A model generated the notes under the pieces. That model was not told the DNA's origin and searched no databases. It saw nothing but the letters and a program-made list of their open reading frames with translations. A stretch of DNA of 64,000 bases from an uncultured Gammaproteobacteria bacterium (GTDB lineage Bacteria; Patescibacteriota; Patescibacteriia; 2-01-FULL-39-33), in the NCBI GenBank assembly GCA_964350585.1, contig CAYGKC010000003.1, positions 4,678-68,677 on the forward strand, in the 5' to 3' direction. The position numbers and the translations under genes are program-made. Shown piece by piece: positions 9,695 through 30,795 of this stretch. Numbering within the stretch: the stretch's first letter is position 1; each line of letters opens with the position of its first letter.

Positions 9695-9703
9695 AAAATC
9701 TTT

Positions 9704-10314: not shown

Positions 10315-10346
10315 TTTAATTTTATTAATTTAATAAAATTTATTTT

Positions 10347-10434: not shown

Positions 10435-10449
10435 ATTTTATTCATTTTT

Positions 10450-10540: not shown

Positions 10541-10584
10541 ATACTGTAATAACCACTATACTTTAACATAATTAAATGTTTTTT

Positions 10585-11319
10585 TCAACCCCCTCCCCTG
10601 GCTATCACAAATCCGCCGATATTATTAAATCCAGAAGATTTCAATACTTTTGCGCACTCCTGCATTGTTGATCCTGTTGTGTAAACATCGTCTACTAATA
10701 AAATGTTCCTATTTCTATTTATAAAGCTTAAAACCTCATCATTAATAACAAAATTATCTTTTAAATTAATTCTTCTTTCTTGCGCTTTTAATTTTGCCTG
10801 AGGTCGGCTATAAATTATTCTTCTTAGCAATTTATCTTCTTTTACTCCTCCTATTAAGTTCACTATTCTATCCGCTATCAGATCTGCTTGATTAAATCCT
10901 CTCTCAAGTTTCCTTCTTCTATGTAATGGAACGGGAACAATTATTGAATTATCATATTTATAATTCAGATTATTGAAATATTTTACAATCATTGCATCAA
11001 AAATTTGGACGTTTTCAACAATAAAATCATATTTAATTGAAGAAATTATTTCCTTAACCAAATTGCCATAATCAGACAAGATCAAAAGGTAATTTAAATT
11101 GGATTCTCCACAACAATTTCCGCAAACCAATCCACCGAAATTACTTTTTCTGCAAATAGGACATTCGAATCCGCTTTTGATTAATATTTTTTTATTGCAA
11201 TTTTCACACAAATATTTACCTAACAAACCGCAACCAAAACATTTTTTGGGAAAGATTAAATCAATAATTTTTTCCTTTGTTTTTGTAAAGTTAAAATTAC
11301 TGTAACCACTGTGCATCAT
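10585..11319 (-). CDS. comFC: competence protein ComFC-like (zinc-finger + phosphoribosyltransferase domain)
   Basis: N-terminal Cys clusters (CFGCG…CENCN…CPICR…CGNCC). C-terminal PRTase PRPP-binding motif ILLVDDVYTTGSTM. Last gene of the long minus-strand operon; its start overlaps the upstream gene by 23 nt. Confidence 0.7.
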   Translation of the reverse strand: MMHSGYSNFNFTKTKEKIIDLIFPKKCFGCGLLGKYLCENCNKKILIKSGFECPICRKSNFGGLVCGNCCGESNLNYLLILSDYGNLVKEIISSIKYDFIVENVQIFDAMIVKYFNNLNYKYDNSIIVPVPLHRRRKLERGFNQADLIADRIVNLIGGVKEDKLLRRIIYSRPQAKLKAQERRINLKDNFVINDEVLSFINRNRNILLVDDVYTTGSTMQECAKVLKSSGFNNIGGFVIARGGG

Positions 11320-11875
11320 CTATTTTCCACTCAGCTCCAATTTTAATGAATTTTAGCTTAATTTTCCAATAGGAAACATTGGCATCTTTTCCTGAACCCA
11401 AATAAGTAAGCCTTTGAGTTCCAACCGTAACAGATGCCTGAGTATCGGAAGTCTCATCCAATGAAAAACTTAATGCCTTTGTCGTAAATCCTTGAAACAT
11501 TTGCGCCTCAGTATTTACATTTTCAAATGTACCTTCCTTTTTTCCCTCTATTTCCTTTGCCATTTTTTCTGTTACCATTGGCATTATATCGTCCAAATTC
11601 TTAAAATCAGCATCAGAAGAATAACTGCCATATCTTTCAGTAAAAGACATTGCTAATTGTTTTAACCCCAAAGGGTATGAACTTTCTTCCTTAACTCTTT
11701 CTGGACTTGATACCGGGAGATTTAATTCACTTTGGAATTCTATTCCCGTTTCAGTACCTTTATCCACCGGTCCCACCTGCTTCTTTGGCCAAAACAAAAT
11801 AACTAAAATTAAAATTATAAGAATTACTATTGCCAGAATGAGGGAAATAATAAATATTTTTTTCTTATTTTCCAT
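11297..11875 (-). CDS. membrane-anchored protein, possible VirB8-like (NTF2-like) T4SS component
   Basis: Single N-terminal TM (IFIISLILAIVILIILILVILFW), then a ~160-aa extracytoplasmic domain ending …GAEWKIDDAQWLQ, which is compatible with an NTF2-like fold. Sits immediately downstream of the VirB4 ATPase. Assignment is inferred from topology and position only. Confidence 0.3.
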   Translation of the reverse strand: MENKKKIFIISLILAIVILIILILVILFWPKKQVGPVDKGTETGIEFQSELNLPVSSPERVKEESSYPLGLKQLAMSFTERYGSYSSDADFKNLDDIMPMVTEKMAKEIEGKKEGTFENVNTEAQMFQGFTTKALSFSLDETSDTQASVTVGTQRLTYLGSGKDANVSYWKIKLKFIKIGAEWKIDDAQWLQ

Positions 11876-11883
11876 ATTATTTT

Positions 11884-13815
11884 TTATGAATTTGCAATAT
11901 CAGTGTTTCCTGCTGCCAAAGCATCCTCGAATTCTTTTTTAGCAGCTTCCAATTCCAATAATTGCCTTGGATCCGATGTAATTAATTGATCTTCTGAATA
12001 TGAAGCAATTATTTTTATAGCAGCATGTTTAGCTCCGGCAAAAAATATACCTTCCCCGACTCCGCTTTCAAGAAGCAAATATTTTTCACCTTCAGTCAAC
12101 ATAAAAGTTTTCTGAATCAAATTAACAGCTGCGGGAGTTTGCTTCATTAACAACTGCATTGAAGAGTTGTTAATAATTGCTTGCCCGTATGGTGATGTTA
12201 AAAAATCATTTACATCCTGAGTTATTGTAGTAATTCCAAGGTAGTATTTTCTGCACCTTTTAACCATAGCATAAATAAATTTAGCGCTATCCTCTCTTTG
12301 CATCAGCCACCAAGCCTCATCTACTATCAAAATTCTTTTTTTCATCTGACTTCTTACCACATTCCAAATATAGTTTACGATAGTATAAATTGAAATAGGC
12401 TTAAGTTCATCTTCCAAATCTCTGACACTAAAAACAACAAGCTGATTGCTCATTTCTACGTTTGTAGGATTATTCAAAAGACCTGAAAAAGTTCCCTCAG
12501 TGTATTTTTTTAATCTTAAAGCTATATTCTCTGCGCCTTCCATTCCTTCTAAAATATCCTGCAAATCCTGGAGAATCGGCGGTTCAATATTTGTCAAATT
12601 CGCTGTAGCTGTTATATCTTTTTTAGCATATGTTTCAAGAAGAGCTCTGTCAATTATTGAATCTTCCTCATATGTAACATCGCCAATCATTAGTCTTATA
12701 AGTCCTTTTACAGTAATAACGGCGCTTCTGATAATATCTTCCGGATGAGCATCTTCTCCCACTGCGCGAGGCAAATCGAATGGATTTATTTTGCTTTCGG
12801 AATTTAAGGAAATATCAATGTAAGTCCCTCCAACGGCATCGCATAAATGCTTGTATTCCCTTTCCGGGTCAATAATTATCACTTCAACTCCAAGCATTAA
12901 ACTTCTTAAAACTTCAAGCTTAACTGCATAAGATTTTCCAGCTCCGGAAGTAGCAAATACAACTGCATTTGCATTTTGAAGTGAAAACCTATCAAAAAGT
13001 ATTAGGCTATTATTATGCCTGTTAATTCCATATAAAATTCCATTATCTGAAGTTAGATCAGAAGACACAAAAGGAAAAGAGCTGGCTGCAGGTGATGTGT
13101 TCATATTCACCAACGTAGCAAGTTCATCAAAAGCTAGAGGCATAGTTGAATTAAAGCCTTGCTCAGCTTGATAAAAGACTCTTCTGGAATAAACCAAATG
13201 CGACCCGAAAAAATTTTCCACTTCTTCGGAAATTTGATTTAATTCCTCAAGTGACTTTGCATAAAGTGTTACATAAAGGCCTGTCTGAAAAAAGTGTTCA
13301 ATCCCCTGTGTCAAGTCATCTCTTAATTTTTCCATATCACGTAACTGCGTCTCAGCCAAAGGATCTCTTGGCGCGCCTTTTTCCGCAGAACTGATAAGTC
13401 CAGATTCTACATTTCCTACTTTCTTTTTTAACTGTTTTAAAATAACGGCAGTTTTAACCGGATAAAAATAAAACGACATATCCGCAACAATATCCATATT
13501 AATAATAGGAGCGAACCATCCCACACTGATGTACCTTGGGTACTGCACCACAAAAATAGTTCTTACATATAACTCTCCCAACCTAATATGGTTAGCTGTA
13601 ACCTCCAAAGCTGCAGGAGCAATTAGATCCCTGATACTTACAACACCTTGTCTGTATATCCTTTCTTCTTCCAAAACTTCTTTGGCAGTGTCTATATGGT
13701 CCTTTTCAATTTGCTTCACTTGTGCCGGAGCATACTTAACTTGCGCACCCAATTCAGGGGGCGTTTCTGTCTGCTTTTTTAAGTCATTTGGAGTAAACAT
13801 ATTAGAATCCTTCAA
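11884..13815 (-). CDS. virB4: VirB4/TrbE/CagE-family type IV secretion ATPase (Gram-positive size class)
   Basis: Walker A VFATSGAGKSYAVK, Walker B RILIVDEAWWL, and conserved C-terminal QDVNDF/TQ region. Track start is a TTG at 13813-15. The first ATG (MFTPNDL…) is at 13798-13800, 1 nt from the stop of the upstream ORF. Confidence 0.85.
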   Translation of the reverse strand: MKDSNMFTPNDLKKQTETPPELGAQVKYAPAQVKQIEKDHIDTAKEVLEEERIYRQGVVSIRDLIAPAALEVTANHIRLGELYVRTIFVVQYPRYISVGWFAPIINMDIVADMSFYFYPVKTAVILKQLKKKVGNVESGLISSAEKGAPRDPLAETQLRDMEKLRDDLTQGIEHFFQTGLYVTLYAKSLEELNQISEEVENFFGSHLVYSRRVFYQAEQGFNSTMPLAFDELATLVNMNTSPAASSFPFVSSDLTSDNGILYGINRHNNSLILFDRFSLQNANAVVFATSGAGKSYAVKLEVLRSLMLGVEVIIIDPEREYKHLCDAVGGTYIDISLNSESKINPFDLPRAVGEDAHPEDIIRSAVITVKGLIRLMIGDVTYEEDSIIDRALLETYAKKDITATANLTNIEPPILQDLQDILEGMEGAENIALRLKKYTEGTFSGLLNNPTNVEMSNQLVVFSVRDLEDELKPISIYTIVNYIWNVVRSQMKKRILIVDEAWWLMQREDSAKFIYAMVKRCRKYYLGITTITQDVNDFLTSPYGQAIINNSSMQLLMKQTPAAVNLIQKTFMLTEGEKYLLLESGVGEGIFFAGAKHAAIKIIASYSEDQLITSDPRQLLELEAAKKEFEDALAAGNTDIANS

Positions 13816-14479
13816 AATTTAATTTATTTAAGTCAGCTAATTTCTCATTCCTTGAGGTAACGGGATTATAAGTTGTATAAAACAATTCAATAAGCGACTG
13901 CGTATCTAAAACGGTAGCTCTTAGTCCCATTCCTGAAAGTCCCATTAATATTTTATCCAACAATGTAAACAGTCCTTTCTTTCTTTCTAAAAATTGTTTC
14001 TGATTTAATTTGATTAGGCTTGTAGGGGATGCGACATCTCCCAACCTTTTCCAAAAACTCATTGATCTGCTAGTTGCAGGATCATACGGCACAACGATAA
14101 AAAACTTTTTTGTCATTATGTTTCCCATCTCCACCAATTCAGAAATATACTGCTTATACTCAGCAATTTGGAGCTTTAACAGGTCGTTTGTTTGCTTTTT
14201 CTCCTTCTCCGCAATATTTTTTAAATAGCCGTCTAGGTCTAATTTTCTGGATTGGATAAGTATCTGAAGCGGGCTGTCTAATAAGTTTAAAAATTGGACA
14301 TAACCTGCTATAATTGCGTTTTGCTCATCTTCAGATTTTAAAGAAAAATTAATACTAGAGACAAGTAAAACCGCTCTCATAGTGCCGTCTTTTAAAACAA
14401 CAGTATCATTCCTTATTTCAGCGATATGTAACCTGCTTTGCGTTGACGGTGTAGTCTGATTAGCTTTTGGATCTGCCAT
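13802..14479 (-). CDS. T4SS-associated protein resembling the N-terminal domain of VirB4/TrbE
   Basis: IRNDTVVLKDGTMRAVLLVSSINFSLKSEDEQNAIIAGYVQFLNLL…LQILIQSRK matches the hallmark pattern at VirB4/TraC N-termini (v-l-kDG…f…g.d.e..s.ee…a…L……l.i…R). Separate ORF ending 1-14 nt from the ATPase ORF start. Confidence 0.45.
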   Translation of the reverse strand: MADPKANQTTPSTQSRLHIAEIRNDTVVLKDGTMRAVLLVSSINFSLKSEDEQNAIIAGYVQFLNLLDSPLQILIQSRKLDLDGYLKNIAEKEKKQTNDLLKLQIAEYKQYISELVEMGNIMTKKFFIVVPYDPATSRSMSFWKRLGDVASPTSLIKLNQKQFLERKKGLFTLLDKILMGLSGMGLRATVLDTQSLIELFYTTYNPVTSRNEKLADLNKLNFEGF

Positions 14480-14483
14480 ATTT

Positions 14484-14915
14484 TTATTCTTCTCCCATAT
14501 AAACGCCCCCCGTATCCACTATTAGAGACAATTCTGATAGTTTGGAGGCTGATACTGACTTTTTAGATTTTATTCTTAAGGGCACATACTGATCTGTCGG
14601 ATTTTTTAGTGCAGCTTTTATTTCATTAATAGATAATTTTTTGCGCCACACCTTTAGCTTTGGGTTTTTTAGCGTAGCAATAAGGTTTAAAAGAAAAAGA
14701 TGGAAAACTTGTCCATTAATTTTAGCAAAAGCAAAAAGGCAAGTTATGCCAAAAACCAAAAGACCCGACAAAACAAAAAGCGAGAAATCAAAAATTTTAT
14801 AAAAAATAAATATTATGCCTAGACCAATAAGCAATTCTATGAACTGCCTGATGGTTATCGGGCCCATAATCTTATCTTCAACGTCCAAAAATTGAGGAAC
14901 TGTTACTTGTTGCAT
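14484..14915 (-). CDS. small inner-membrane protein, VirB3-like
   Basis: ORF of 143 aa with two adjacent TM helices (LLIGLGIIFIFYKIF; VLSGLLVFGITCLFAFA). Encoded just upstream of the VirB4 N-terminal-like and ATPase ORFs, which is the canonical VirB3-VirB4 arrangement. Confidence 0.4.
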   Translation of the reverse strand: MQQVTVPQFLDVEDKIMGPITIRQFIELLIGLGIIFIFYKIFDFSLFVLSGLLVFGITCLFAFAKINGQVFHLFLLNLIATLKNPKLKVWRKKLSINEIKAALKNPTDQYVPLRIKSKKSVSASKLSELSLIVDTGGVYMGEE

Positions 14916-14917
14916 TT

Positions 14918-16525
14918 TTAATGCCTTAATTGATTATTTAATTTCATAACCGCATCGAATTCTTCAATACTTAACGTAGGTTTACCGCTCACCAGTCTCT
15001 CCTTGATTACTTCATTTATATTTCTATTTTCTTCCATAGCCATTAATCCCAAAAGCCTGTAAAACCTGTTAATTTCATTTTTAAACCAAGCATTTACACC
15101 TTCCATTTTCCTTTCATAAGACTCATCTTCCAAAAGCTGTACTTTTTTGGTTATTTCTGAAGTAGCTTTATCAGGAGTTTCGGCCAATCTTCTAAATTCA
15201 ATAAGAGTCATTTGGCTTAATTCTTCGATTGGGCCGGTAAGTTTTTTGGCTATCCTTACGCCATCAAGCAAGGGCCTTCTAGTATTCTGAGCTTCTATTA
15301 TCCTTGGAGGAATTTTTTGCGTTGTCGGATAATGTACCGGAGAAGCTTGAGGCAAAATTTCTTCCTTCACTTCTTTTTTTTCTGTCTTTTCTATTTTGGG
15401 ATCATTATCAGTTTTTAGCTCAGCTTCTTTTATAATTTTATCAATTTCCTCTTGCGGTTTATTTATTTTTTCAAAATTTTCTTTCGGTTTAACTGCAACT
15501 TCTTCTTTTATACTATCCATTTTAATTACCGGCAGCCCGTCTTCTTCCTCTATTTTCATTGGCGGAGCATAAAAAACCTTCTTACTCAAAGCCTTTTGGC
15601 TGGACTTGGGAGCCTCAACAACAGCAGTTTCTTTAGGTTGTTCAACAACAGTAAAAGAAGTTGGCTCACCTTTTTTTTCATCTTGAATCTTTTGCGCCAA
15701 TGTTATTTTCTGCGGTTCTTTAACAACCTGTTGCGGTTTATTATTAGAAGGAGAAAGAATGGCCTTAGGCAGAACAGTTTTAGTAACAAGAGGAGTTACT
15801 TTAATTTCAGTTTTAACAAAGTTGCCTTTCTCATTCTGTTTATTCTTAACTATCCCTATCAAAGAATTGGCAGAATTTGAATCCAACTCCATTCCTCCGA
15901 TTTTTCTGCTTTTGGTAAGCGCATCCAATGTCTCTATCTCATCGCGAACATCCCTTAAATTCAAAATTATTATATTTTTAAGGCGCTTTGCCAACACATC
16001 ATCACCTTGATAAGCAAACTCTTTAATTATTATATCAGATAAAGCGTCATAATTATAATCTTCACTCGGTTTTACTGAATTATTTTTAATTTTTGCAATT
16101 TCTTGCTCGTCTTCAGCATCAAAAGACAAATTTCTTGCAATATTTTTTTGCGGATCAGAAATAAAATTAGTCAGATTTTGAGTTTCGGCTTCTATAACCA
16201 CATTTTGATCATCAGCCTTTTCTGATTTACTTAAAGATAATTCCGGCATCTGGCCTAATAAAAAATCAAATTTATCAACTATTTCCTTAACCGCTAGCCC
16301 GCCAAAACCCAACTTATTTTGTAAAAATAAAGGAAGGTCTTTTTTTGCTATAAATCCAAAAGCATATTCCAGAAAAACGCTTGCCGCTTTAATCCTGTAT
16401 TTTTTATCCAAATCGTTAAAAACAGATATAAAATCAGGCGAAGACATTTTTTGCTTCGCTGACATTGGCAACTGAGATAACTTATCTAATATTGAATCCA
16501 TTAAATATGGTTTTAAAATCTTCAA
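14918..16525 (-). CDS. hypothetical protein, K/E-rich, no TM; T4SS-locus member
   Basis: ORF of 535 aa with a central Lys/Glu/Pro-rich low-complexity region. Tightly packed in the operon, with 2-nt spacing to the next gene. Confidence 0.3.
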   Translation of the reverse strand: MKILKPYLMDSILDKLSQLPMSAKQKMSSPDFISVFNDLDKKYRIKAASVFLEYAFGFIAKKDLPLFLQNKLGFGGLAVKEIVDKFDFLLGQMPELSLSKSEKADDQNVVIEAETQNLTNFISDPQKNIARNLSFDAEDEQEIAKIKNNSVKPSEDYNYDALSDIIIKEFAYQGDDVLAKRLKNIIILNLRDVRDEIETLDALTKSRKIGGMELDSNSANSLIGIVKNKQNEKGNFVKTEIKVTPLVTKTVLPKAILSPSNNKPQQVVKEPQKITLAQKIQDEKKGEPTSFTVVEQPKETAVVEAPKSSQKALSKKVFYAPPMKIEEEDGLPVIKMDSIKEEVAVKPKENFEKINKPQEEIDKIIKEAELKTDNDPKIEKTEKKEVKEEILPQASPVHYPTTQKIPPRIIEAQNTRRPLLDGVRIAKKLTGPIEELSQMTLIEFRRLAETPDKATSEITKKVQLLEDESYERKMEGVNAWFKNEINRFYRLLGLMAMEENRNINEVIKERLVSGKPTLSIEEFDAVMKLNNQLRH

Positions 16526-16539
16526 AAATATTTACCAAG

Positions 16540-17466
16540 TTAAGACGCTAATAATTTATCCCATTCCTGATCACTCATTCCATATTCCTGCTTTGCTATC
16601 ATTTTCTCAATCTCAGTCATATCTTTTATTTGCTCTTTGGATAAATGATTTTTCTTGGTGTTTACAGTTTCCTTAGGAGCTACATAATTATTCTTTCTTT
16701 TTATCTCGCCTCTTGGGATAATTTCCCACTTGTCTTCCGCCAAGTCTATCAACTGATCAGGGTAGTTTTTCAAATTAGTGTAAATATTTAGAATATCAAA
16801 CAATTTTATCTTCTCTGCCTCTGAAATATTTCTACAGTTATTACCGTTTGCAATATAATCACTTAATTCAATAGTGGACAATACTCCTGTGCCTTTTTTT
16901 TCAATAAAATCTTTAAGCCAATTGGCAATCGTTGGAGCTGATTGCTTGTTTTCTAAAATTATATTTTTTTGCGTCAATTGTTCTTCATTTTGAAAAAGAA
17001 GCCTTATTAATTCGCTTTTAAAATTAATATCTTTCCTAAGGATATTAAAAATCCTTAAGTTAACAGCGTTTCTTATAATAAAATTTTCAGCCAATTCTTC
17101 CAGAACACCGCCCGCAAAAATCCTTCTAAGCATATCCTTTTCATCATTTACCGCCATATTTTTATTAGGATCAGCATTTAGGAAACTAATTCTTTTTTCA
17201 AGTGGCTTTACAACTTCTGCAAAAAATTCTTTTTCACAAGGTATAGCTTTTTCTTTATCCAAACCCTTTTCCTGAATAAGATAAGACAAAAAATCTTCAT
17301 AAGATAACCCGCCAACGACTAACAACAATAATGGAGCGTTCAAATCTACGCCGTATTTTTGGGATAATTTTGATATAGCGGAAATATTTCTTTCACTGTT
17401 AACAATAAACACCACTTCCGGATGCATTTGTCCAAATTTCCTTAATGCTTCTTCTAAAGTAATCAT
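16540..17466 (-). CDS. hypothetical cytoplasmic protein; T4SS-locus member
   Basis: ORF of 308 aa with no TM and no recognised motif. Operonic. Confidence 0.3.
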   Translation of the reverse strand: MITLEEALRKFGQMHPEVVFIVNSERNISAISKLSQKYGVDLNAPLLLLVVGGLSYEDFLSYLIQEKGLDKEKAIPCEKEFFAEVVKPLEKRISFLNADPNKNMAVNDEKDMLRRIFAGGVLEELAENFIIRNAVNLRIFNILRKDINFKSELIRLLFQNEEQLTQKNIILENKQSAPTIANWLKDFIEKKGTGVLSTIELSDYIANGNNCRNISEAEKIKLFDILNIYTNLKNYPDQLIDLAEDKWEIIPRGEIKRKNNYVAPKETVNTKKNHLSKEQIKDMTEIEKMIAKQEYGMSDQEWDKLLAS

Positions 17467-17475
17467 AATTAATCT

Positions 17476-20400
17476 TTATTTTTTTGGTATGACATTACTG
17501 CCATGTTCTGCCACTGTCTTATTATCAATAATCGGACCATTTTCAGTTTTTCGGCCAACTTTCTCATTTAACAATGCGATAACGGTCGATAATTTTGAAA
17601 CATCCCCTCCGCCTTTTTCATAAGCAGCGATACCGCGTTTTAATTCAAGAACCAAATAAGCTTGAGGTCCGCTTAATTCGCGAGGCAAAGCAGCTAAAGA
17701 ATCGGTTAATGTTTTTATAGCGCCTGTGGATTCAGTAAGTGCTTTAACCGATTTGAATTGCATTTCTGTTTGACCGTTAGTAGAATAAAAACTGCCCCTG
17801 CTTATATCAGTTAAGAAATCTGCGTCTGTAGCCCCATTTTCTATAACCTTAATTAGATTATCAATGGCTTTTTTCATTTTTGTAGCATCTTCAGCTACAG
17901 CCTGAGAAACCCAATTTTCATGGGCATAGGGCTTATAATCATCAAGAACGGTATCGACAAGATTAGGTTGCGGTTTTTGAGGCTGAACTGAACCAATAGT
18001 ATCAGTATATTTTTCATTTGCTTTAGTATCTTCACTATCTTTATTTTCGTATGCTTTTTTTCTTTCTTGTTCTCGTCTGTTTTCAATGTCACTGATACTA
18101 CTTAAACCATAAGTTCTTGCGTTAATAGCAGCTAACTCTAAATCTAATTTTCCTTGTATTGCTCCTTTTGCACTATTGAGATCAATATTTGCCTGATATT
18201 CTTTTAAAAATCTATTTTTCTCTGCTTCAATGCGTTCTTGTTCTTTTGCAGTTTTTCCACTCTTACTAGCATTTAAACTATCTTCTACTCTTGTTACATG
18301 GCGGGATTCTTCATCTGCTCTGATAGTTTCAGAATTTATTTTATGAGTTTCTATTTTATTTTGTCTATCAGTATATGCAGTCTCTTTATGGAAATCTTCC
18401 TTGGCTTTAGCTAAATCTGCATCGGAAACTTTTCCTTTCTTAACAACAGATGACATTGATCTATATGCACCTCTGCCATTTAAGAAGTCTAAGAAATCAC
18501 TTGGCACCATACCCTTTGAAATTTTACCTGATTGTACATTGTCAATTTGTGATATTTCACCTTCTGCCTTAACTCTTGCAGCATAAGCTGGATCGCTTTT
18601 TATCCTTTGATCAATAGCTAAATCTCTTCCCTTTTCAGACGTAGCAACAATATTTTTTGTATTTTGGCTTGCTTCATCAATTTTTTTACCTTCTTCTTCC
18701 CTATTCTTTTGGCGTTTTGAGCTTTGATCACCTAATGCCATTTCAAGCAAACGTCCTCCTCCTGTCATATAACCCACAGCTAATGCGCCCAATCCCAAAC
18801 CTCCAGTAGCCACACCTCCTGCTACAGTACCAACGGTAGCTGTAACTGCAAGAGCTCCTGCTTTAACATTTTTAGCTAAATCCGTATTTGTAAATTCCCC
18901 CCATGCCGCTTTTGCTTTATCACTGCCAAGACCCATTTTACCCATTGCTTTTGATAGCTTTTCTTTTCTTACCTTTCTCCTGCCTTCCAAAACATCAGTT
19001 CGCCACTGTGAACCAAACGCTCCAAGCTTGGTCAAACCCTCAGACCCTGACAATTTGCCAAGACCTTTTGAAATTCCGCTGGCAAGTGCAAGAGATCCTG
19101 TCCCAGCCTTCCCTGCGGCTTTTTTGCCTACCCATGCGCCCGCTCCCAATCCCGATTTTGCCAATGATTTTCCAAATTTCATAGGCTTCTTAGCCTGCTG
19201 TTGCAACCAACTCATCCCAGAGTTAGCAACGTTTGCTCCGACAACTCCGCTTCCTTTGGCAAAATTCAAACAAACAATCAAAGCGCCAATAACTAAAGCC
19301 GTATTAATAATGCCTTCAACCGTCAAGCCTGCTGAAAGTGTTCCTTTGTTCAAATCTGTAATTTCCTGTTTATCAGGAACCTGACCCCCTAAAGAACTAC
19401 GTATATCCCTTGTAGGATTATTATTAAGAGCTCTCTCAGCTGAGTTACCCCCATGACCCATCATCATAAATGAAATCCATAAAAAGAAAACCAACACAGG
19501 ACCGACTGTCAAATACTTCACAAAGTTATTAAACCAATCAGAAGAATACTTTTCTGTTTGCTTGATTAATTTTAGAAAAACATATGCCGGAGAAAGAATA
19601 GTCAAAAACAGCAATACAACTATTCTGGCAACGAGTATGGCAATAATTGATACAATTACAATTACAACTATAACTGCCACTATTATGGCGTAAATAAGAG
19701 CGGCAAAAATATTAGTCATTTCTATACCAGCCTTATTTTTGGATATACCCTCATTCATAGGATTCGCTGTCCATTCCTGCCACCTAGTAAGTTCCGGCAA
19801 TTTTAGAGCTGACAAAACAATATTTCCACCTTGAATATTGGCAAAAGCGCTGGCGAATGAAAGCATTAACACTTGTGATATATCTATGGCAATACCCACA
19901 AAAAGCTTTGAAAAATTAATAAGTATTGCAGCGATTAGAATTTTAGGCAACATCGCCTTATAATGATAGTCTTTTTTATTGAGAATAGTCCCGATAGCCA
20001 CAACCATCAGAAGAACAATAAAAAAGTTATTGAAGAGATTTCTAACAACCTTCCAGCCTTCAACGACAGCAGCAGTATTATTAACATTTATAGGATAACT
20101 CATCACCGTTAGCATTGCCCACATTAACCTAGTTATTATCCAACCAAGTGCAGCAAATATTATATAAAGAATATATGCGAGAAGGTTTATAATTATATCT
20201 ATTGCTTCTAATTCTCCCACGTATTTACCAGACGGAGATTTTTCAATAGCTTCTTTTTCTCTTTTAGCAGTGTTTAAAAACTCCTCTTGTTCCTTAGTTA
20301 AAGGTTGCTTTGATTCTAATTCGGTAATCCATTTATTATATTGAATAATTCTGCTTTCATCATTTCTAACAACATCATCAGGTACTGAAAGCCAACTCCA

Positions 20401-20568: not shown

Positions 20569-20578
20569 ATAAATTATT

Positions 20579-23500: not shown

Positions 23501-26500
23501 GTCATAGTCCATTTTTTCACATAAACCAACTCTTAAACAACTGTCCTGACTCTGGAATCGAAAATCTGCCGCCGTACTTGTGGTGGAATCACTGTCTTTT
23601 TTATAAGTGGTGCAATACAGCCAGTTCTTGCAAGTTCTGTCGGGCAGAACCTTAAGCAGTACGCTGGTATCTTTGGGCTCATCTGTTGAAGCCTTAAGAG
23701 GTTGCTGTTTATTGCCAATATAATCGGAATATGTTTTTGAAGAATTGAAAATCAAATATTTATTTCGTTCTTTAATTAATTCATCGTTTGAATCTGAATC
23801 ATATGAATAATTTATGCTTGATCTTTCATTAAACAGCACGCAACCCGTCTTGTAATCAACAAGGCCGTTGCAACCTGAACGATTTACATTGGTAGATAAA
23901 GCGTAATACACTCCCGCTCGAGTAACTACAGTACTTGTACTTGAAAGATTAATTTTACAAGTTTTAACGTTATCATCCTTTGCCTTCACATAAAAAGTAG
24001 TTGTAACATTGCCAAGCGGATGATAAATATTACAAAAAGCAGAAGCGGCAGTTGTGGTAACAAATCCTCCTGATGAAGAATAAAGGTAATTAGATTCTAT
24101 AACCAAGGTTGATGAACTCTTATAATTCAAATTAGGATAAATTTCAGTGATAGGATCGATATATTCGCTGCATCCGTTTTTATTATCCTGACATAAACCC
24201 ACCCAACCGTTATATTTAATGTTGCTGTAATTATTTATTACAAAAATTGTTGATGATCCTGTTAAATTATTAATAGGACCGATCGGCTGATATTTGTTTC
24301 TGACTGATTCATAACCCGTGCCGAATGTTTGATCGGGAGTAATCATACACGCTTCGTCAGTTCCTTTTTTGTACCATCCCGCCGCCAAATCTCCCGCTCC
24401 TCTGAATTCGCAAAGTTTCCTGGGATTTTTAAAATAATATAAGGAATTATTGCCGGCAAATTGTTCGCACCATACCTCGTCTGCAGCGCATAAATCAGTC
24501 GCATACCTATCAGGATCATTCTTTAAAAATACAGTGCTATATCCTAGAACTTCGTCATATTGGTTAATTTTGGGCAAACCCAAAGCCATACATCCTTTAT
24601 CTTGCAAACCACAACTATATGCTGGGCTATTAACAAGATATGCTTTTTCGTAAGGTCGGACGGTAATTTGATCATTATATCCTTTGCTATTATCAGGATT
24701 AAATATAAATCCTTGATATTTATCGTAATTATGAGTATCAATAAGTTCTTCGCAACCCGCAGCTTCTTTTCTGCACAAATTGGCAAATGACTTCAAATAA
24801 GCGCTTAATCCGTCTTGAGTTTTGTACGCTTTACAGCCAAGCATATTGCCAGGAACACATCTGTGGTTATCAGTACCGGGATTTTGATCATAACAAATTT
24901 GATAAGCAGCACTGGAATTAGTCTGTGACTGAGCATAGTTTACTTTACCAGCCGGATCATTTAAATCATTGTCGCAAGAAAACGGAGTAAACCAGGAATT
25001 CTCAACCAGATACACTTTATCTCTCATTTCTTTCAACTGAATATTATCCAAGAAAACTTTTTCAGAACCAATATTAAAAACTAAATTTTCAACCTCCGGC
25101 TGATCCCATGTTACAAAGACCGGACCTACTTCAAAATATTTCCATTCACCTGTAATTTCAGGCATAGAAAGATTAATATCACCATCATTTTTCAAAGATG
25201 AAACTGCAAAGTAGTCATTTGGATTAGTAGAGCTGTTGAACTTTATTGATTCGAATCGGAAATTGCCTGTTGAACTTGCTTTAGCCCAGAAACTGAGCAT
25301 ATATGTCCTATTTTTATGTACGGCAACTTCCTTTTTAATTTGTCCACCAGTATTTTTTATGGAGTATCCCCCTTGATATGTCGCTTCTGAACTTGTAACC
25401 GCTCCAATCCAGCCTTCAAGATTTTCATTGCTGAATTGACTTATTGGGAATACGTTTCTGATATTATTGCCATAATTTCCGGTGTAAGCCCGACAACCGG
25501 AAACTGAGGCGCTGCACATAATTCCTTCGCCTTTCATAGCCATATATATGCACTCATTAGTAGCACTATTCCACCAGCCTTTTGTACAGTTTGCCTCTGC
25601 TTCTGTAAGCGTTTTTTCTGTTTGTGTTCTTCTATACGGATGGCAGTTATCAGAAATTGTAACAGTCATTGATAAAAGACGATAAGTGATGTTTCCGCCA
25701 GCATCGTAAAACTGCCTGCAATCTGGATTTGAAGCCATATTCTCTTTGGTACAAAGTCCATTTTCTAAATTATGTGAAACTGCATCAGGATCATTGCAAA
25801 TTCCAATACCGCTTGTATTATAGGAAATGTTTGTGCAGGGCGCGCTTGGATCTTTATTACTCCTTTTTAGTTTGTAAACCTTTAACTGATAACCGGTCGT
25901 ATCTTCACCCTCCCAAGTATAGTAAGTGCCATCATCCGTAGAAGGTTTTTGGCATGCTTTTATTCGCACAAAATATTCTCTTTGTTCCGCTCCCCTGCCT
26001 AGCTCATCAAGGTTTGTAAATTCATCACATCCCGCATAAGCGGCCGAACAGTATTTTGGCACGTTATTAGCAATAAACTGGACAAAGGTCGACGAAACAA
26101 AATAAGTTTTTTCTTGTTTATATACCTGGTATCCCGCACATTCCGCAGGGCACAAATCAATGCTTTCAGCCACTCCGGGCACTTCCGGATCGCCGTTTAC
26201 GGGCTTATAAATATTGCAACCTACCTCATCAGAAGTACAAACTGAAGCGTATTTTGAACAAAGTTTATTTTGGTTAAGAAGAATATCATATAAATTCGAG
26301 CTGTTAGCCCAAATATTACCTTTCTTATAGCAATTTAAATAATCAGGCGCTTTCCTTAAAAACGTCAATTGCTCTGCAGGCCGTTTTGAAGGATTATATT
26401 CTGTGAAAGAAGAAGGCAACTCAGAATTGTAGTTTATTTCTTCTAACTTTATATCATCAAAATATACCATCGTTTCTGCTAAGCCGGATATCACCCGAAT

Positions 26501-29500
26501 ATCGTATTCATTGGCTCTGTAATCTTTCGCCATCACTGCGACTGCCTGAACTTTTTGCCATTGATTGATTCTACTCTTGTCAAAACCGGCTGACATAATT
26601 TTATTATTCGGTGACAATAAAAATAATTCTACCGACCCGCCACCTAAATTACTAACAGTGCTTGAAGCAATATATACCCAGCCGGACAAGGCATATTTAC
26701 TTCCTCTTTTAAGATTTATAATATTTTCAGCTCTGGGAACTTCCACAACGGCATAGTCAGCGTTACATGAATCAGCTGACAAAGTACATCTAATTCCCAA
26801 AGAATGTGAACCGCTATTTTTTATGCTATTGCTTCGGCTGAATTCTACGTGTCTGCCATGCTCGCTGTCTTTCTTCCATACATCCACTCCGTCACCTGCT
26901 CCGTCTTCAAATCCCCCGTTTGGCACCAAATTACTGCCCAAGCCTGATTTCAATCGAATAAATTGCGAACAGCCGTCAGAAACACTATTGCAGGTAGGGG
27001 CATTTTTTGTCAGATAAATTTCATTTTCTGTCGCATTGATACTGGCTGTATTACTGGCATTACCTAACCAAATACTGTTAGCTCCGCAATCATCCTTTAT
27101 TTTTTTAATGGTAAAATCATCAAAATAAACATCAGCAGTAGTGCCTGCTTTCAATCGGATTTTTATTGTTGTAGTATTAAAATTTCCAGAGTTAAAATAC
27201 CATATTTTTTCATTCCAGCCTGCACTAAAAGAATATAGTTGGTATTCTTCTTTTTCTTCGCCTCTTATTATTGAAACAATAATTGCTCCATTATTATCTA
27301 AAACGCCAGTGCTTCCCGATAAATAATTGCCTCTAACAAAGAAATTTAACTGATAATTTTTGTCTTTTTCAAGAGGTATGTTTTCAAGCGATACCCAGGT
27401 ATTGGCATCTTCTGCTATGACTGGGGCATTATTTCCGATTATTCTTAAAGCTGAACTAGTACCTCTTCCTTCTCCCGCAACTCTGTAAAAACGGTTATAC
27501 ATATCATAGTTGGCATTATCAAAATTCCAGATTGCAGGAATCCAGTCATATTCATCCTTTTGTTCAAAACCTCCGTTAAACGTTCTAAGCAGATCATTAT
27601 TGTCTATGCAAAGCTCTAAATAACATCCCGAGCTTCCAGGCGTTGAGGTGCAAGATACCTGAGGCGTCCCAAATGAGCTGAATCTACATGTACCATCAAT
27701 AATATTATAAGTACAATTGGTAGATGAAGTGCTGTCACAAGCTGATTGCGTACAGGGTTGAGACATCCTAAGCATTCCGTCCGTGCTTATCTGATGCCAC
27801 TTATAAACAACTTTTCCTTCAAGAGTTAGAGTTTGTGAAGTGGAAGTGATTCTTGTTATTACGTTTGGAGCAAGATGACGCCAAACATTGTTTACCGTAT
27901 CAAGTAACATACTATACCAACGGCATCCTACATTAGTAGAATTACAATTGCCGAAATCCAGAGTGTTCATCAAATATGATTGTTTTTTACCGTCAGATGC
28001 CGAAAAAGTCTGGCAAGTATTGAATCTTGGTTCGCAAGCAGTTGGAAAAGTCCAGATTCTTCTTTCTTCGGTACAATAGCCGTAAGCTTGGCAATTATTA
28101 TCAATATCCTGTTGTAAACACTGTTGTTCATCTGCACAATATTCTCCTCTCATAATACTTCCATCAGGTGAATCTCGCGTTGTGTTATAACCTCCATAAC
28201 CCTGCCTTCTGCAAAATAATTCTGGCACTTTTAAAGTCCAATATGGATTAACCAAACCGTAAAAAATACTATCTGGATTTTCAAAACCGGCAGCAACCTC
28301 TTTTAGTGTATAATTTCTATCGCTTCCATTTGCTTTTATTGCTGCAAACTCCCATCCCACAGGAATAATTCTGTATTTTCTAAGTATAATTATCGATCTT
28401 AAGGGCAATTCACTGTCTAAATTGTCATTTCCCACGGCTGGAGCAAATAATCTTTCTCCTATGCCAAGAGTATCAGACAAAACTTCATATAACTGCTTCT
28501 TTTCTTTTATTGCTGATAGTAGTTTTTGATCAATTACGCAATCAGTTGGACCCGGATTCTTTCTGGTTGAATCAGAACATAAAGCAAGCTTTGTTAAAAT
28601 ATCGTAAGATCCTCCTTCTTTAAAGGAATAATTCTTAAGCTCCGAAAACCTTTCTTTAGCTCCCGTAGCTCCTTCGCTTTGTGGAGATGCCAACGGATTT
28701 AGCAATGCGGATAAATTTGGAAGAGCAAAACCGCTTGAACCGCCGGAACTGCTATCGGAAGAACCTTTGAATAATCCATTTTTAAAATTATTCAACAACT
28801 GAGCAGCTAAAGTATTTAAAAATGTTTCAACAAAATCAAAAATTGTTCCGGTATATATATTATCTTTTTTGCCGACGTTATCAGGATCAACTAAAGCCTT
28901 ATGCAAAGCTTCCCTAACAGTAGTTCCCGGAGTAAGAACTTTGCCGGCAAAATCTTTTAGATCCTTAAATTTGGCCGCCTTTGCAGCTTCATCTTCAGCC
29001 TCTTTGACTTTTTTATTTACATATTCATATGATTTTCCTTGTATTAACAAAAAGGTTGAAATATCGTTTTCTCCAGGTTGAAGAGAATTATTGTACTCAA
29101 AAGAAAAATCAGCTCTTTGGATTGCTGAATTCCAATTTGTCATCATCGTAGAAAAAGTACATCTGACCTGTCTTGGAACTTTATAATTAATGCTTGTTTG
29201 AATCGCTAACCGCATACTTAAATTAGGGCGACATAAATCGACACCATAAGATTGCCCTACTTGATCAATAAAGTCTCCCAAAGCGCTGTCTGCGGCATTT
29301 TCCAAATATGCTCCCCAACCTTCGGTAATAAACAAAGGCTTTTGTCCCTTTCCTCCTGAAGCCACCCAGGTAGCGGTATCTTCGGCCAACTGTCTTGAAA
29401 AGGTACTTAAAGAAACCTTAAAAGCTCCTGCCATTGCTTTTGTAGCCTCCTCCTTTATTGCCTCCCACCATTCTCTTCTCTTTTGATCCCTAATCATCTG

Positions 29501-29845
29501 TTTCATTTGTTTCTCAGCACCAACTTGTGTTGCAGCATCAGTACACTGCTTTTCAGCTTCTGCTAAAGCAGTTGTTCTAGCATGGCATTCAAAACCAACA
29601 AGTGGTACAGGTTCGCATGGAATCGCAGAAGCCAGTATAAGTGATTCGTTACATCTCAATATTAATTCTTCAACAGGAATAGCCCAAGCGTCTGGAAGAA
29701 ATGTCAAACTCTCATCAAACCTTGAAATTGCTAAATTTCTGCTTTTATCTAAAGCTTCAATAAAAGCCTTAGCATTATCAACAAAAATAAAACTAAAAAA
29801 AATAGTTAAAAATAAAGTTAAAATAATTTGATATCTTTTCATCAT
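20579..29845 (-). CDS. giant (3088 aa) secreted Cys-rich multi-domain surface protein with CBM-like beta-sandwich modules and C-terminal PKD-like domain
   Basis: Uninterrupted 9.27-kb ORF with signal peptide MMKRYQIILTLFLTIFFSFIFVDNAKA. Very many Cys residues. Recurring (N)GGFE/NGNFE motifs typical of CBM4/9/22-type modules (LRTFNGGFEQ, VPNGGFEDG, SNGNFES). C-terminal …YTINWGDGSEDS… resembles the PKD-domain WDFGDGS motif. No C-terminal TM. Confidence 0.6.
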   Translation of the reverse strand: MMKRYQIILTLFLTIFFSFIFVDNAKAFIEALDKSRNLAISRFDESLTFLPDAWAIPVEELILRCNESLILASAIPCEPVPLVGFECHARTTALAEAEKQCTDAATQVGAEKQMKQMIRDQKRREWWEAIKEEATKAMAGAFKVSLSTFSRQLAEDTATWVASGGKGQKPLFITEGWGAYLENAADSALGDFIDQVGQSYGVDLCRPNLSMRLAIQTSINYKVPRQVRCTFSTMMTNWNSAIQRADFSFEYNNSLQPGENDISTFLLIQGKSYEYVNKKVKEAEDEAAKAAKFKDLKDFAGKVLTPGTTVREALHKALVDPDNVGKKDNIYTGTIFDFVETFLNTLAAQLLNNFKNGLFKGSSDSSSGGSSGFALPNLSALLNPLASPQSEGATGAKERFSELKNYSFKEGGSYDILTKLALCSDSTRKNPGPTDCVIDQKLLSAIKEKKQLYEVLSDTLGIGERLFAPAVGNDNLDSELPLRSIIILRKYRIIPVGWEFAAIKANGSDRNYTLKEVAAGFENPDSIFYGLVNPYWTLKVPELFCRRQGYGGYNTTRDSPDGSIMRGEYCADEQQCLQQDIDNNCQAYGYCTEERRIWTFPTACEPRFNTCQTFSASDGKKQSYLMNTLDFGNCNSTNVGCRWYSMLLDTVNNVWRHLAPNVITRITSTSQTLTLEGKVVYKWHQISTDGMLRMSQPCTQSACDSTSSTNCTYNIIDGTCRFSSFGTPQVSCTSTPGSSGCYLELCIDNNDLLRTFNGGFEQKDEYDWIPAIWNFDNANYDMYNRFYRVAGEGRGTSSALRIIGNNAPVIAEDANTWVSLENIPLEKDKNYQLNFFVRGNYLSGSTGVLDNNGAIIVSIIRGEEKEEYQLYSFSAGWNEKIWYFNSGNFNTTTIKIRLKAGTTADVYFDDFTIKKIKDDCGANSIWLGNASNTASINATENEIYLTKNAPTCNSVSDGCSQFIRLKSGLGSNLVPNGGFEDGAGDGVDVWKKDSEHGRHVEFSRSNSIKNSGSHSLGIRCTLSADSCNADYAVVEVPRAENIINLKRGSKYALSGWVYIASSTVSNLGGGSVELFLLSPNNKIMSAGFDKSRINQWQKVQAVAVMAKDYRANEYDIRVISGLAETMVYFDDIKLEEINYNSELPSSFTEYNPSKRPAEQLTFLRKAPDYLNCYKKGNIWANSSNLYDILLNQNKLCSKYASVCTSDEVGCNIYKPVNGDPEVPGVAESIDLCPAECAGYQVYKQEKTYFVSSTFVQFIANNVPKYCSAAYAGCDEFTNLDELGRGAEQREYFVRIKACQKPSTDDGTYYTWEGEDTTGYQLKVYKLKRSNKDPSAPCTNISYNTSGIGICNDPDAVSHNLENGLCTKENMASNPDCRQFYDAGGNITYRLLSMTVTISDNCHPYRRTQTEKTLTEAEANCTKGWWNSATNECIYMAMKGEGIMCSASVSGCRAYTGNYGNNIRNVFPISQFSNENLEGWIGAVTSSEATYQGGYSIKNTGGQIKKEVAVHKNRTYMLSFWAKASSTGNFRFESIKFNSSTNPNDYFAVSSLKNDGDINLSMPEITGEWKYFEVGPVFVTWDQPEVENLVFNIGSEKVFLDNIQLKEMRDKVYLVENSWFTPFSCDNDLNDPAGKVNYAQSQTNSSAAYQICYDQNPGTDNHRCVPGNMLGCKAYKTQDGLSAYLKSFANLCRKEAAGCEELIDTHNYDKYQGFIFNPDNSKGYNDQITVRPYEKAYLVNSPAYSCGLQDKGCMALGLPKINQYDEVLGYSTVFLKNDPDRYATDLCAADEVWCEQFAGNNSLYYFKNPRKLCEFRGAGDLAAGWYKKGTDEACMITPDQTFGTGYESVRNKYQPIGPINNLTGSSTIFVINNYSNIKYNGWVGLCQDNKNGCSEYIDPITEIYPNLNYKSSSTLVIESNYLYSSSGGFVTTTAASAFCNIYHPLGNVTTTFYVKAKDDNVKTCKINLSSTSTVVTRAGVYYALSTNVNRSGCNGLVDYKTGCVLFNERSSINYSYDSDSNDELIKERNKYLIFNSSKTYSDYIGNKQQPLKASTDEPKDTSVLLKVLPDRTCKNWLYCTTYKKDSDSTTSTAADFRFQSQDSCLRVGLCEKMDYDDRTCDSFTQKNNEPITTNSSNFQFLTGYSVPNYLSFAEMTQEGQSASVSNGNFESTVSASAEPLGWTMSASSSDLDASGWGPDKYAIERNYLYRKQDAGYLRLHGPNELESEPIDVEKGQEYYLSAWLNTLDLLSTTSAEIWVFEGSECSNQRPGRVISMREGINWTKKTLKFTPSTSTICLKLINFNNSLDQKECNDLLDDKKYNINYGTACRISGSSLFDDISLKPVLNPVPKVSQLNAFTGLTDILTKEESTISRSCRIYPDQNAMSCQYSEDGRFYYGWYGYCLAWDPKNPQVCLQWWPVDEIKGDIVDEYSGGYRERSPLYYCVSTTKETIRVYVETTKVTSGGMGQMLNNLAPGLNLNVLGGETAQYSVFESENSDLINASALFRYPFISKPETNALNKLSTLFSEVLSGFTLGGKPQNRNTFHYAGIVLGVGGNLDGFGLGGGIANVHMGRNNVSHFGADGQDPLGIIFDLLGLNNLENTICSSFLKFLLGDKCETYNGGELEPRIGNLTDNSRWGGWGLAATSWFGGDGAGTALLFPESWDNVENKIMSGGSGDGGGDLIGQIMSMAGLDAGGTGTSLGAKVVTDQDPKYASYFTDPNPSVPGDILGLAWNVKAGGIVLGLLMTGSAYSEFDIHYCNKIVQVATPSGKNKAWVDRLSSGSQFAFSTTTDKYPQFTNPYCLKGLNDGVTAACTNSAINGSTTCREKGNTWDEITGKCYYENMIYSNLGYKFDGYGADYKPFGSLVAPSNNFQNPILWDSRRTDDDYTKQPILWETPNFKTEAPYQPRTGQPVKEEALKNLFAQSYGVWVWKEDNNRWDQGSYDEVKGANWSLPNEYCSGLNPGDRDVNWRFINTALGVPCKIKPLITNIKVSTSSQTLRLSFNVKVDKDQLPLTSYTINWGDGSEDSVAGVKLRQRIDENNPFVMYHYYNPNEMSPNPATITITVKDNWNASASSTISSSLIEAGY

Positions 29846-30724
29846 TTAATTATTTCCCAGTTTATCTAAAAACATCTTTTTAATTTCTTCATCTGAAATC
29901 TCATTTATAACTCCGGCAGGCGCTCCGTTTTGTATCATTAATGATTTTATTTGCGCTCCGGTTAAATTATTTAAGTCATCCATTGAATTAATTTGCAGTT
30001 TGGAAATATCAATTTCTCCAGGCACTATATATCCTTGGCTAGAATCACCGCCAACAACCGTTGTGCCAGCCTGCGCAGAAATATTTGCCAACTCGGGATC
30101 TTCCGCAAGCATTTCTTGAAATAGTTGTATTAAATCACTGTCAGTTAACTCATCAAGATCACTTTGACTGACACCTGCAGTAAGTAAAACTTCTCTAATC
30201 ATTTGAGGAGTAACAACCGGAGCGCCAGTTTCAGGCATTTGTCCAAAAATCGGCACATTTGCAGTTCCTGTAGAATTACCGAAATTAAAGCCCCCAGTGC
30301 ACTGCTGGCCCTGCGGACAATTCGGATCAGTGCCTGCAGTAACTTCATTGGCGTCGTTTATTCCGTCGCCATCAGTATCCTCTAGAAACGGACTAGTGCC
30401 GTAAACAGTAGTTTCGTGATAATCAGAAAGGCCGTCGCCATCAGTATCGGTAACTGTATCAATTGCCATTGTCTGGCTCTGTTCAATAGGATTTTTATCC
30501 AAAAAAGAAAAAGGATTTCTTATTCCATTTACTATTTCGTAAAAACCGAGACCGAAGGCGAATATGCCGACAATTACAATAACAATAATATTAAGCCTTT
30601 GCTTATTATTGCCGGCTGTTTCCTTCTTTGGGATGTTTTCAACGCCACTTTCAGCATTTATGCCATCATAAAAATCCCCTTGTGCGGGTAAATTCTCAAA
30701 GTCATTTTGATTGCCACCTTCCAT
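29846..30724 (-). CDS. membrane-anchored protein with thrombospondin-type-3/dockerin-like Ca2+-binding Asp-rich repeats
   Basis: TM IIVIVIVGIFAFGLGFY. Repeats DTDGDGLSDYHE… and DTDGDGINDANE… follow the DxDxDG calcium-binding pattern. First gene of the operon; its stop abuts the giant ORF start. Confidence 0.5.
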   Translation of the reverse strand: MEGGNQNDFENLPAQGDFYDGINAESGVENIPKKETAGNNKQRLNIIVIVIVGIFAFGLGFYEIVNGIRNPFSFLDKNPIEQSQTMAIDTVTDTDGDGLSDYHETTVYGTSPFLEDTDGDGINDANEVTAGTDPNCPQGQQCTGGFNFGNSTGTANVPIFGQMPETGAPVVTPQMIREVLLTAGVSQSDLDELTDSDLIQLFQEMLAEDPELANISAQAGTTVVGGDSSQGYIVPGEIDISKLQINSMDDLNNLTGAQIKSLMIQNGAPAGVINEISDEEIKKMFLDKLGNN

Positions 30725-30744: not shown

Positions 30745-30795
30745 ACTAAAATTATAACACAATAAAAGAAAAATTTCTATTATATTAGAACATAA
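30745..30795 (-). promoter_or_regulatory. candidate sigma70-type promoter (extended -10 TGnTATAAT) for the 30724→10585 operon
   Basis: On the minus strand, tgtTATAAT (plus 30751-30759) lies ~30 nt upstream of the ATG at 30724, in an AT-rich 155-nt intergenic region. Found by eye only. Confidence 0.25.

Follow-up and report, generated by a model that had tools for sequence, protein, structure and literature searches.

A chromosomal type IV secretion locus of ABY1-type Patescibacteria, its conserved partners and its possible role in host contact

What is a type IV secretion system (T4SS) for when the genes for conjugation are missing? The question arises for Patescibacteria, whose T4SS was essential in the one system tested and comes without conjugation proteins. 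We addressed it with a locus at positions 10585-30724 of a 64-kb window, the whole stretch of contig CAYGKC010000003.1 analysed here. Ten minus-strand open reading frames (ORFs) in this region, encoding a T4SS core, a giant secreted protein and a ComF-family protein, were all confirmed at the coordinates first assigned to them. The locus is securely identified as a chromosomal, vertically inherited, non-conjugative T4SS of the ABY1 type of Patescibacteria, and its clade is derived from the MPF_FATA conjugation systems of monoderm bacteria. We consider it probable that the system builds and powers a host-contact organelle, and that conjugation of DNA is not its task. The locus also suggests a set of conserved partners that are unannotated in published analyses: a family of giant Cys-rich proteins of about 3,000 aa with carbohydrate-binding modules (CBMs) and its TSP3-containing partner, a VirB6-like protein of the extended type, a pair of cytoplasmic paralogues (g4 and g5), pilin-domain hydrolases and a DsbA.

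A monoderm-type T4SS core conserved in ABY1 genomes

Profile searches identified the 643-aa ORF at 11884-13815 (minus strand) as a VirB4 ATPase of the MPF_FATA/CD1110 type. The protein scored 358 bits against the CD1110 family NF045971 (9e-107; curated cutoff 325) and matched P-loop_TraG (1.2e-30), with a visible Walker A motif (GAGKS) and Walker B motif (ILIVDEAW), in agreement with the initial annotation. It reached 120 bits against TIGR00929, the VirB4/CagE type, where the cutoff is 643, and is not of the MPF_T type; the match to CedB, at 41.7 bits for a cutoff of 700, was a P-loop match only. The public gene call places the start at an ATG at 13800, five codons 3' of the TTG of the 643-aa form, giving a protein of 638 aa, and an exact-sequence look-up of the 643-aa TTG-start form returned no match.

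The 225-aa ORF preceding virB4 (13802-14479, minus strand), described beforehand as resembling a VirB4 N-terminal domain, matched TrsD (NF041427, 1.8e-8) and carried a precomputed assignment to the TraC-like family PF26593. On the CD1110 VirB4 profile this TrsD-like protein covers positions 8-119 and the 643-aa ATPase positions 179-729; the two ORFs add up to one VirB4. A frameshift was ruled out as the origin of the split, because in 77 of 80 related loci the TrsD-like protein is an ORF of its own, 218-257 aa long. These loci are the best 80, at species level, of 498 VirB4 relatives confirmed among at least 600 candidate stretches. Counts of individual genes in this set are lower bounds (10-kb flanks, contig ends).

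Two further membrane proteins of the core were identified on either side of this split ATPase. A 143-aa protein with two transmembrane (TM) segments (14484-14915, minus strand) matched PrgI/VirB3 (PF12666) with 28 bits, just over the cutoff of 27, which upholds its description as VirB3-like. After virB4 lies a 192-aa bitopic protein (11297-11875, minus strand) that had been listed as a TM-anchored NTF2-like candidate. It matched no sequence family, and since its profile retrieved only PrgL from the PDB sequences, at an E value of 5.3, structure prediction was needed. The AlphaFold2 model (predicted local distance difference test score, pLDDT, 84.5) consists of a TM helix and an NTF2-like domain. 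Foldseek searches of the PDB with this model returned CagV (3e-5), TcpC and PrgL (both 1e-4) and many further VirB8 structures, with E values from 3e-5 to 1e-3 and target TM-scores of 0.6-0.67, bearing out a VirB8/PrgL-like protein.

The assignment of the VirB6-like protein was less direct. In this 1030-aa polytopic protein (17476-20568, minus strand), a signal peptide and about seven TM segments, up to residue 437, precede a 590-aa hydrophilic tail rich in Lys, Ala and Gly. Its TrbL match (E 0.0037, 17.5 bits) fell under the cutoff of 25.9. TrbL was the sole recurrent family among its orthologues, 13 of 46 of which matched it (best 1.2e-5), and one orthologue (locus L083) gave a weak TrbL_3 match. 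Alignment profiles of the VirB6-like protein, g4 and g5 found no meaningful match among PDB sequences. The size and topology agree with the "extended VirB6" type (PMC12857230). The tail was originally placed outside the cell; its hydrophilic character stands, an extracellular position is conjectural, and charge counts did not settle its side.

Collectively, these data indicated that a cytoplasmic-membrane core is present, made of an extended VirB6-like protein, PrgI/VirB3, a VirB8-like protein and a split VirB4. This core array recurs in 80 species-level genomes, whose VirB4 is 68-85% identical to that of the window. TrsD was found in 80 of the 80 loci, PrgI in 76, the VirB8-like protein in 74, g5 in 69, the VirB6-like protein in 45, the C-terminal part of the giant protein in 28 and g4 in 24. 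The order g1 (the TSP3 membrane protein), giant, VirB6, g4, g5, PrgI, TrsD, VirB4, VirB8 is kept across many species, and this conservation is beyond chance.

The window comes from a Patescibacteria genome of the ABY1 class, near Buchananbacteria and Falkowbacteria. The host is a bacterium with a small genome and probably an episymbiont, as had been suspected. Where the records of the best 80 relatives bear a lineage name, they read Patescibacteria, Buchananbacteria, Falkowbacteria, Magasanikbacteria or Parcubacteria; a large number are records of metagenome-assembled genomes with generic or other labels. Buchananbacteria, Falkowbacteria and Magasanikbacteria are members of the GTDB class ABY1. 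Many of the nearest relatives, L002, L004 and L007 among them, are third-party annotation (TPA) metagenome bins titled "uncultured Gammaproteobacteria"; their gene content and VirB4 identity fit Patescibacteria, and the titles look mislabelled.

Pfam scans of the window ORFs of at least 100 aa detected no VirB7, VirB9, VirB10, VirB11 or VirD4, and no relaxase, coupling protein or integrase in the 64 kb. The claim of a Gram-positive-type minimal channel lacking these components was thus sound, and no relaxase or VirD4 lies next to the locus. These results bear on whether the locus passes DNA to other cells as an integrated conjugative element or what is left of one. VirB4, TrsD, PrgI and the VirB8-like protein are indeed homologous to monoderm conjugation proteins. 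Against this, GC content is uniform across the window, with housekeeping genes flanking the locus and no compositional island, the chromosomal position from LeuRS/ksgA to recG/radA is constant in dozens of species, and relaxases are rare in Patescibacteria (PMC12102498). Within the 64 kb a conjugative element was therefore rejected, because relaxase, type IV coupling protein (T4CP) and integrase are missing, GC is even and the position is fixed across species; we regard this explanation as very improbable.

The combination of genes was first thought to be undescribed, which was not supported, as most of it has been published. Quiñonero-Coronel et al. (PMC12102498, 2025) reported a Patescibacteria T4SS with a VirB4 clade related to MPF_FATA, TrsD as its most abundant partner, PrgI, VirB6 and VirB2-like pilins. 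In their analysis VirB8 is almost confined to ABY1, relaxases are scarce, comF, recG and radA are common in ABY1 T4SS loci, with functional coordination suggested, ksgA lies near virB4 in several classes, and no PrgB-like adhesins were found. The locus described here shares with the ABY1 systems an MPF_FATA-related VirB4 with an adjacent TrsD-like protein, PrgI/VirB3, a VirB6-like protein (sub-threshold), VirB8 and nearby pilins, the lack of relaxase and T4CP, a chromosomal site near ksgA and comF, recG and radA as neighbours. It therefore belongs to a known, recently described system and adds no new kind. Beyond the published text lie the pair formed by g1 and the giant protein, g4 and g5, the fusions of pilin domain and peptidoglycan hydrolase, DsbA and an inversion described below; nothing contradicts membership.

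Conjugative T4SSs from Gram-positive species (pCF10 Prg/Pcf, pGO1/pSK41 Trs, CTn2 CD1110) have in common with this locus VirB4, TrsD (of the pGO1 type), PrgI, a VirB8 fold like that of PrgL and TcpC, the absence of an outer-membrane core and, in pCF10, a large surface adhesin (PrgB) beside the channel. Unlike them, this locus lacks a relaxase, T4CP and oriT, is chromosomal and vertically inherited and has VirB2-like pilin domains. The T4SS of Southlakia epibionticum (PMC10633639) is similarly monoderm-type, without a recognisable relaxase or a coupling protein in the locus, and combines pilin-like genes with cell-wall hydrolases in an epibiotic organism with a reduced genome. It differs in that its pilins are six small ones in an array and no structural VirB8 could be found; the present locus has two fusion proteins with pilin domains, an evident VirB8-like protein, the adhesin-like giant neighbour and comF/radA/recG.

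The giant protein, its membrane partner and the g4/g5 paralogues

The first two genes of the array encode a small membrane protein and the giant protein. The former, g1 (29846-30724, minus strand), is a 292-aa protein with a predicted TM segment at residues 46-64 and two TSP3 Ca-binding repeats (TSP3_bac, 5.1e-13), as the initial annotation had anticipated. The giant gene begins immediately after the g1 stop codon. The giant protein (3088 aa; 20579-29845, minus strand) carries a Sec signal peptide and 88 Cys residues. Besides a conserved N-terminal domain of about 550 aa, it contains modules of the CBM_4_9 type, Cys motifs of the repeated form GCxxY, a region rich in Gly and a weakly matched Ig-like C-terminus. 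One CBM_4_9 module exceeded the cutoff, at 28.2 bits when residues 1450-1620 were scanned alone. The portrait of a Cys-rich, CBM-containing surface protein was accordingly retained in part: the Cys residues, the Sec signal and CBM_4_9 were found, and the PKD domain, for which the only trace was a weak Big_9 match, was not confirmed.

This protein belongs to a large family. Its full-length homologues of 2400-3900 aa number at least 134, and those with a named source mostly bear labels of Patescibacteria lineages. At 50% identity the N-terminal domain yields 1356 clusters, of which 882 have E <= 1e-30, and nearly all of these clusters are giant proteins in which the domain is N-terminal. A giant-like gene lies 5' of the VirB6-like gene in 26 of the 39 loci with at least 1.5 kb of upstream sequence, and large Cys-rich ORFs occupy this place in several others. 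In six distant homologues examined, ksgA and a g1 homologue precede the giant gene in all six. On the 3' side, four of the six have a full T4SS (VirB6-like, g4/g5-like, PrgI, TrsD, VirB4, VirB8-like), one has a VirB6-like gene only and one, L084, has no T4SS gene. Some loci of the Falkowbacteria type (L014, L017, L083 and similar) have an additional membrane protein of 150-260 aa between the giant and VirB6-like genes (for example L083, 18824-19330), which has no counterpart in the window.

Large, Cys-rich proteins with a signal peptide and a proposed role in attachment have been reported from the candidate phyla radiation, in Peribacteria (PMC4736985) and Patescibacterium danicum (PMC11809585). 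Those proteins differ in having FhaB, DUF2341 and FG-GAP domains and were not reported next to a T4SS; the window family is set apart by a conserved N-terminal domain of its own and by its constant place 5' of VirB6. The giant protein likewise shows no relationship to PrgB and lacks an LPXTG motif. No published link between the giant protein and a T4SS was found in the literature, and CBM_4_9, TSP3, ComF and DSBA gave no match in two text supplementary files of PMC12102498. The conserved pair of g1 and the giant directly 5' of VirB6 in most ABY1 loci may be new. Because of its Sec signal peptide, the giant protein is unlikely to be a cargo of the T4SS, as had been one suggestion; the other, an adhesin or fibre, is plausible.

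A fixed gene order may also reflect a shared neighbourhood and nothing more. On that account the T4SS core would work alone, and g1 with the giant gene, like comF, recG and radA, would be ancestral neighbours kept by vertical descent. We regard this as unlikely, and part of the evidence fits it. The tightly packed same-strand run includes the unrelated ksgA, MFS transporter, FemAB, LeuRS and tRNA genes, ksgA lies near virB4 across several classes (PMC12102498), and ksgA, g1 and the giant gene are kept together in L084, where no T4SS follows. The position of the VirB6-like gene argues against it: in five of the six distant homologues, and at 26 or more of the 39 loci, it comes directly after the giant gene.

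Between the VirB6-like and prgI genes lie two genes for cytoplasmic proteins, g4 (308 aa; 16540-17466, minus strand) and g5 (527 aa; 14918-16501, minus strand), the latter kept directly 5' of prgI. Comparison with hhalign indicated that they are paralogues (probability 95%, E 2e-8). The g5 model shows three confident helical domains (residues 1-90, 150-225 and 420-527) joined by Pro-rich disordered linkers, and Pfam searches of individual g5 orthologues gave no recurrent family. Paralogues of this kind inside the T4SS array appear to be an unreported accessory feature.

The downstream block and the function of the system

The terminal gene of the array, comF (10585-11319, minus strand), overlaps the VirB8-like gene by 20-23 nt. 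Its 244-aa product has zinc ribbons and a phosphoribosyltransferase domain (DZR_2 and Pribosyltran in Pfam) and matched GntX (1.2e-27) and TIGR00201 (4.7e-30), the latter over residues 38-241 and profile positions 1-190 of 190. The 104.9 bits obtained are below the curated equivalog cutoff of 233.6. The gene called comFC from the sequence is thus a full-length member of the ComF family that stays under this cutoff. Beyond comF on the same strand are gX (9808-10314), a 168-aa membrane protein without a family match that accompanies recG, and the recG helicase gene itself (7649-9745; RecG_wedge, DEAD, Helicase_C). On the plus strand, radA (6332-7648) encodes a rubredoxin-type zinc ribbon (Zn_ribbon_LapB), a KaiC-type ATPase (AAA_25), ChlI and a weaker Lon_C match. 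Both recG and radA are nearer to comF, at 0.8 and 2.9 kb, than the 3-5 kb once estimated. Among the 80 loci, comF was found in 41, recG in 39, radA in 38 and gX in 33.

The radA gene is the last of a plus-strand operon beyond recG (2603-7648) that had been overlooked in the initial inventory of T4SS components, where DsbA and the pilin-domain and lytic-transglycosylase genes at 3825-6329 did not figure. It begins with u406 (2603-3823), a TM-anchored protein with a propeller-like domain (weak Peptidase_S9_N match) that lies beside dsbA and pilin genes in 13 loci. Next come a membrane-anchored DsbA-like thiol oxidoreductase (3825-4520; Thioredoxin_4 1.1e-22, DSBA 4.8e-10), a 329-aa fusion of a VirB2-like T4SS_pilin domain with a VirB1-like SLT lytic transglycosylase (4524-5513; PF18895 3.7e-9, SLT 6.6e-17) and a second, 270-aa VirB2-like pilin-domain protein (5517-6329; PF18895 2.7e-9, 37 bits against a cutoff of 26.6, and a weak TrbC match). 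The C-terminal domain of the second pilin protein, about 130 aa, had no match among PDB sequences. The neighbourhood thus contains VirB2-like and VirB1-like functions. Sec signal peptides were seen on the pilin proteins as on the giant and VirB6-like proteins.

A perfect direct repeat of 436 bp (4512-4947 and 5505-5940) gives the two pilin genes an identical signal peptide and T4SS_pilin N-terminus (141 aa). Beyond it similarity falls to random and the C-termini differ, SLT in one and the domain of about 130 aa in the other. The repeat could be a recent gene conversion or an assembly artefact. The window contains another membrane-anchored DsbA-like gene at 48476-49291 (minus strand).

In 70 informative loci, the gene after the VirB8-like gene was comF in 37, on the same strand and often overlapping, dsbA in 13, radA in 10 and a pilin-domain gene in six. 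Two downstream layouts were distinguished, which an inversion converts into one another; the inverted unit is the entire block [comF, gX, recG / radA, pilin, pilin-SLT, dsbA, u406], which adjoins the T4SS in either orientation, with gX in both. The pilin-hydrolase/DsbA part of it appears to be an unreported accessory feature. For a neighbourhood without shared function, the adjacency of comF in just 53% of loci is a further point in favour. The block that still adjoins the T4SS after inversion speaks against it, as does the presence of DsbA beside an 88-Cys protein, with pilin and hydrolase genes in one block, which fits a single envelope machine.

The same block raises the possibility of DNA import. 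The T4SS would then be an uptake machine functionally like ComB or Ced, in which ComFC takes over the single strand at the membrane for processing by RadA and RecG, with DNA possibly taken directly from the attached host. In agreement with this idea, comF overlaps the VirB8-like gene and directly follows it in 37 of the 70 informative species, radA begins 2 nt after the second pilin-domain gene, the block adjoins the T4SS in both orientations, and the same co-localisation is the one for which functional coordination was suggested (PMC12102498). The locus resembles Helicobacter pylori ComB in being a T4SS without a T4CP, and in H. pylori ComFC has a part in that overall process too (PMC9005727).

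However, several observations make DNA import rather doubtful. In about half of the loci (adjacency about 53%) comF is non-adjacent or on the opposite strand, and the repair role of radA and recG is a general one. ABY1 genomes reportedly possess the usual uptake machinery of type IV pili and ComEC (PMC11809585), the normal partner of ComFC. In Saccharibacteria, transposon sequencing showed that the T4SS is essential for epibiotic growth, which does without comEC, comF and dprA (Wang et al. 2023, PMC10633639). ComB belongs to the diderm MPF_T systems and is defined by VirB7, VirB9 and VirB10, which are absent here, and the window VirB4 belongs to another lineage, as its scores against the VirB4/CagE (120 of 643 bits) and CedB (42 of 700 bits) profiles indicated; the resemblance to the Ced system of Crenarchaeota ends at the P-loop.

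A broader version would join the T4SS, the giant lectin-like protein and ComFC/RadA/RecG in one machine that docks on the host and imports host nucleic acid. The giant protein would recognise the host, the T4CP-less channel would work inward, and ComFC would hand the strand to RadA and RecG, as a monoderm counterpart of ComB and Ced. We hold this combined machine to be quite improbable. With comF, radA and recG nearby, nucleic acid is a candidate substrate, though not an established one; if their linkage is functional, it would point to nucleic acid as the substrate.

We return to the host-contact organelle as the probable role of this T4SS. Pilus biogenesis requires VirB4 and not the coupling protein. 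In the mechanism we propose, the giant protein would be exported by Sec and its 88 Cys oxidised by the DsbA of the locus, which belongs to the conserved block near it. The translationally coupled TSP3 partner g1 would hold the giant protein at the surface, where its CBM-like modules could bind glycans of the host cell wall in place of the PrgB-type adhesins that Patescibacteria are without. The pilin-domain hydrolases would open the wall, and VirB4 may extract them into a short conduit; the VirB3/6/8 channel would be powered by TrsD and VirB4, with the cytoplasmic paralogues g4 and g5 as putative adaptors on the ATPase. Tubular structures, possibly T4SS pili, have been described at the Patescibacteria-host interface (2026 preprint, 10.64898/2026.06.21.733656).

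Several findings weigh against this reading. L084 has ksgA, g1 and the giant gene without a T4SS nearby, and the pair of g1 and giant can therefore exist apart from it. The adhesin role rests on CBM-like modules, of which one is above cutoff, on size and on genomic position. Neither g4 nor g5 has a Pfam match, a PDB-sequence match or a convincing fold match, and the VirB6 assignment is sub-threshold by sequence, although the polytopic topology fits. Synteny in compact genomes need not mean shared function, since conservation is just as strong for the neighbours ksgA and LeuRS. Should the giant protein be what the T4SS uses to recognise the host, it would offer a way into host range for a class without cultivated members. 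The g1-giant pair, g4 and g5, and the pilin-hydrolase/DsbA block merit a focused comparative study.

Limits of the locus and flanking genes

The ten co-oriented, tightly packed ORFs, spaced by -20 to +38 nt, are real and their order is conserved; the limits of the operon they were said to form are less certain. The same-strand run is longer than ten genes, from recG (7649) to LeuRS (37721), and comprises recG, three tRNAs, the ten genes, ksgA, the MFS transporter, FemAB and LeuRS. Orientation and spacing are therefore insufficient to delimit an operon. The largest local gap, 155 nt, lies 5' of g1 and contains a promoter-like site at 30751-30779 (minus strand; TAGAAA, a 17-nt spacer and TG-TATAAT as an extended -10), which a consensus scan suggests weakly. 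Promoter and terminator scans within the ten-gene array were uninformative, with counts no better than in shuffled sequence.

An Rfam scan of the window returned three tRNAs and nothing else. These genes, one tRNA-Arg and two tRNA-Ser, are interspersed with recG, gX and comF on the same strand (9703-10541, minus). The two tRNA-Ser genes (10346-10435 and 10449-10541; ARAGORN and Rfam) lie between comF and gX, and a 95-aa plus-strand ORF that overlaps both (10279-10566) is unlikely to be a real gene.

At the other end of the run, the LeuRS of 1187 aa (34158-37721, minus strand) has a NUDIX domain (residues 438-530) and a serine-hydrolase domain (residues 627-798) inserted after the editing domain. 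Among relatives, LeuRS has no such insert in L083, L084, L086 and L087, a NUDIX insert in L088 and a Ham1p-like insert in L085.

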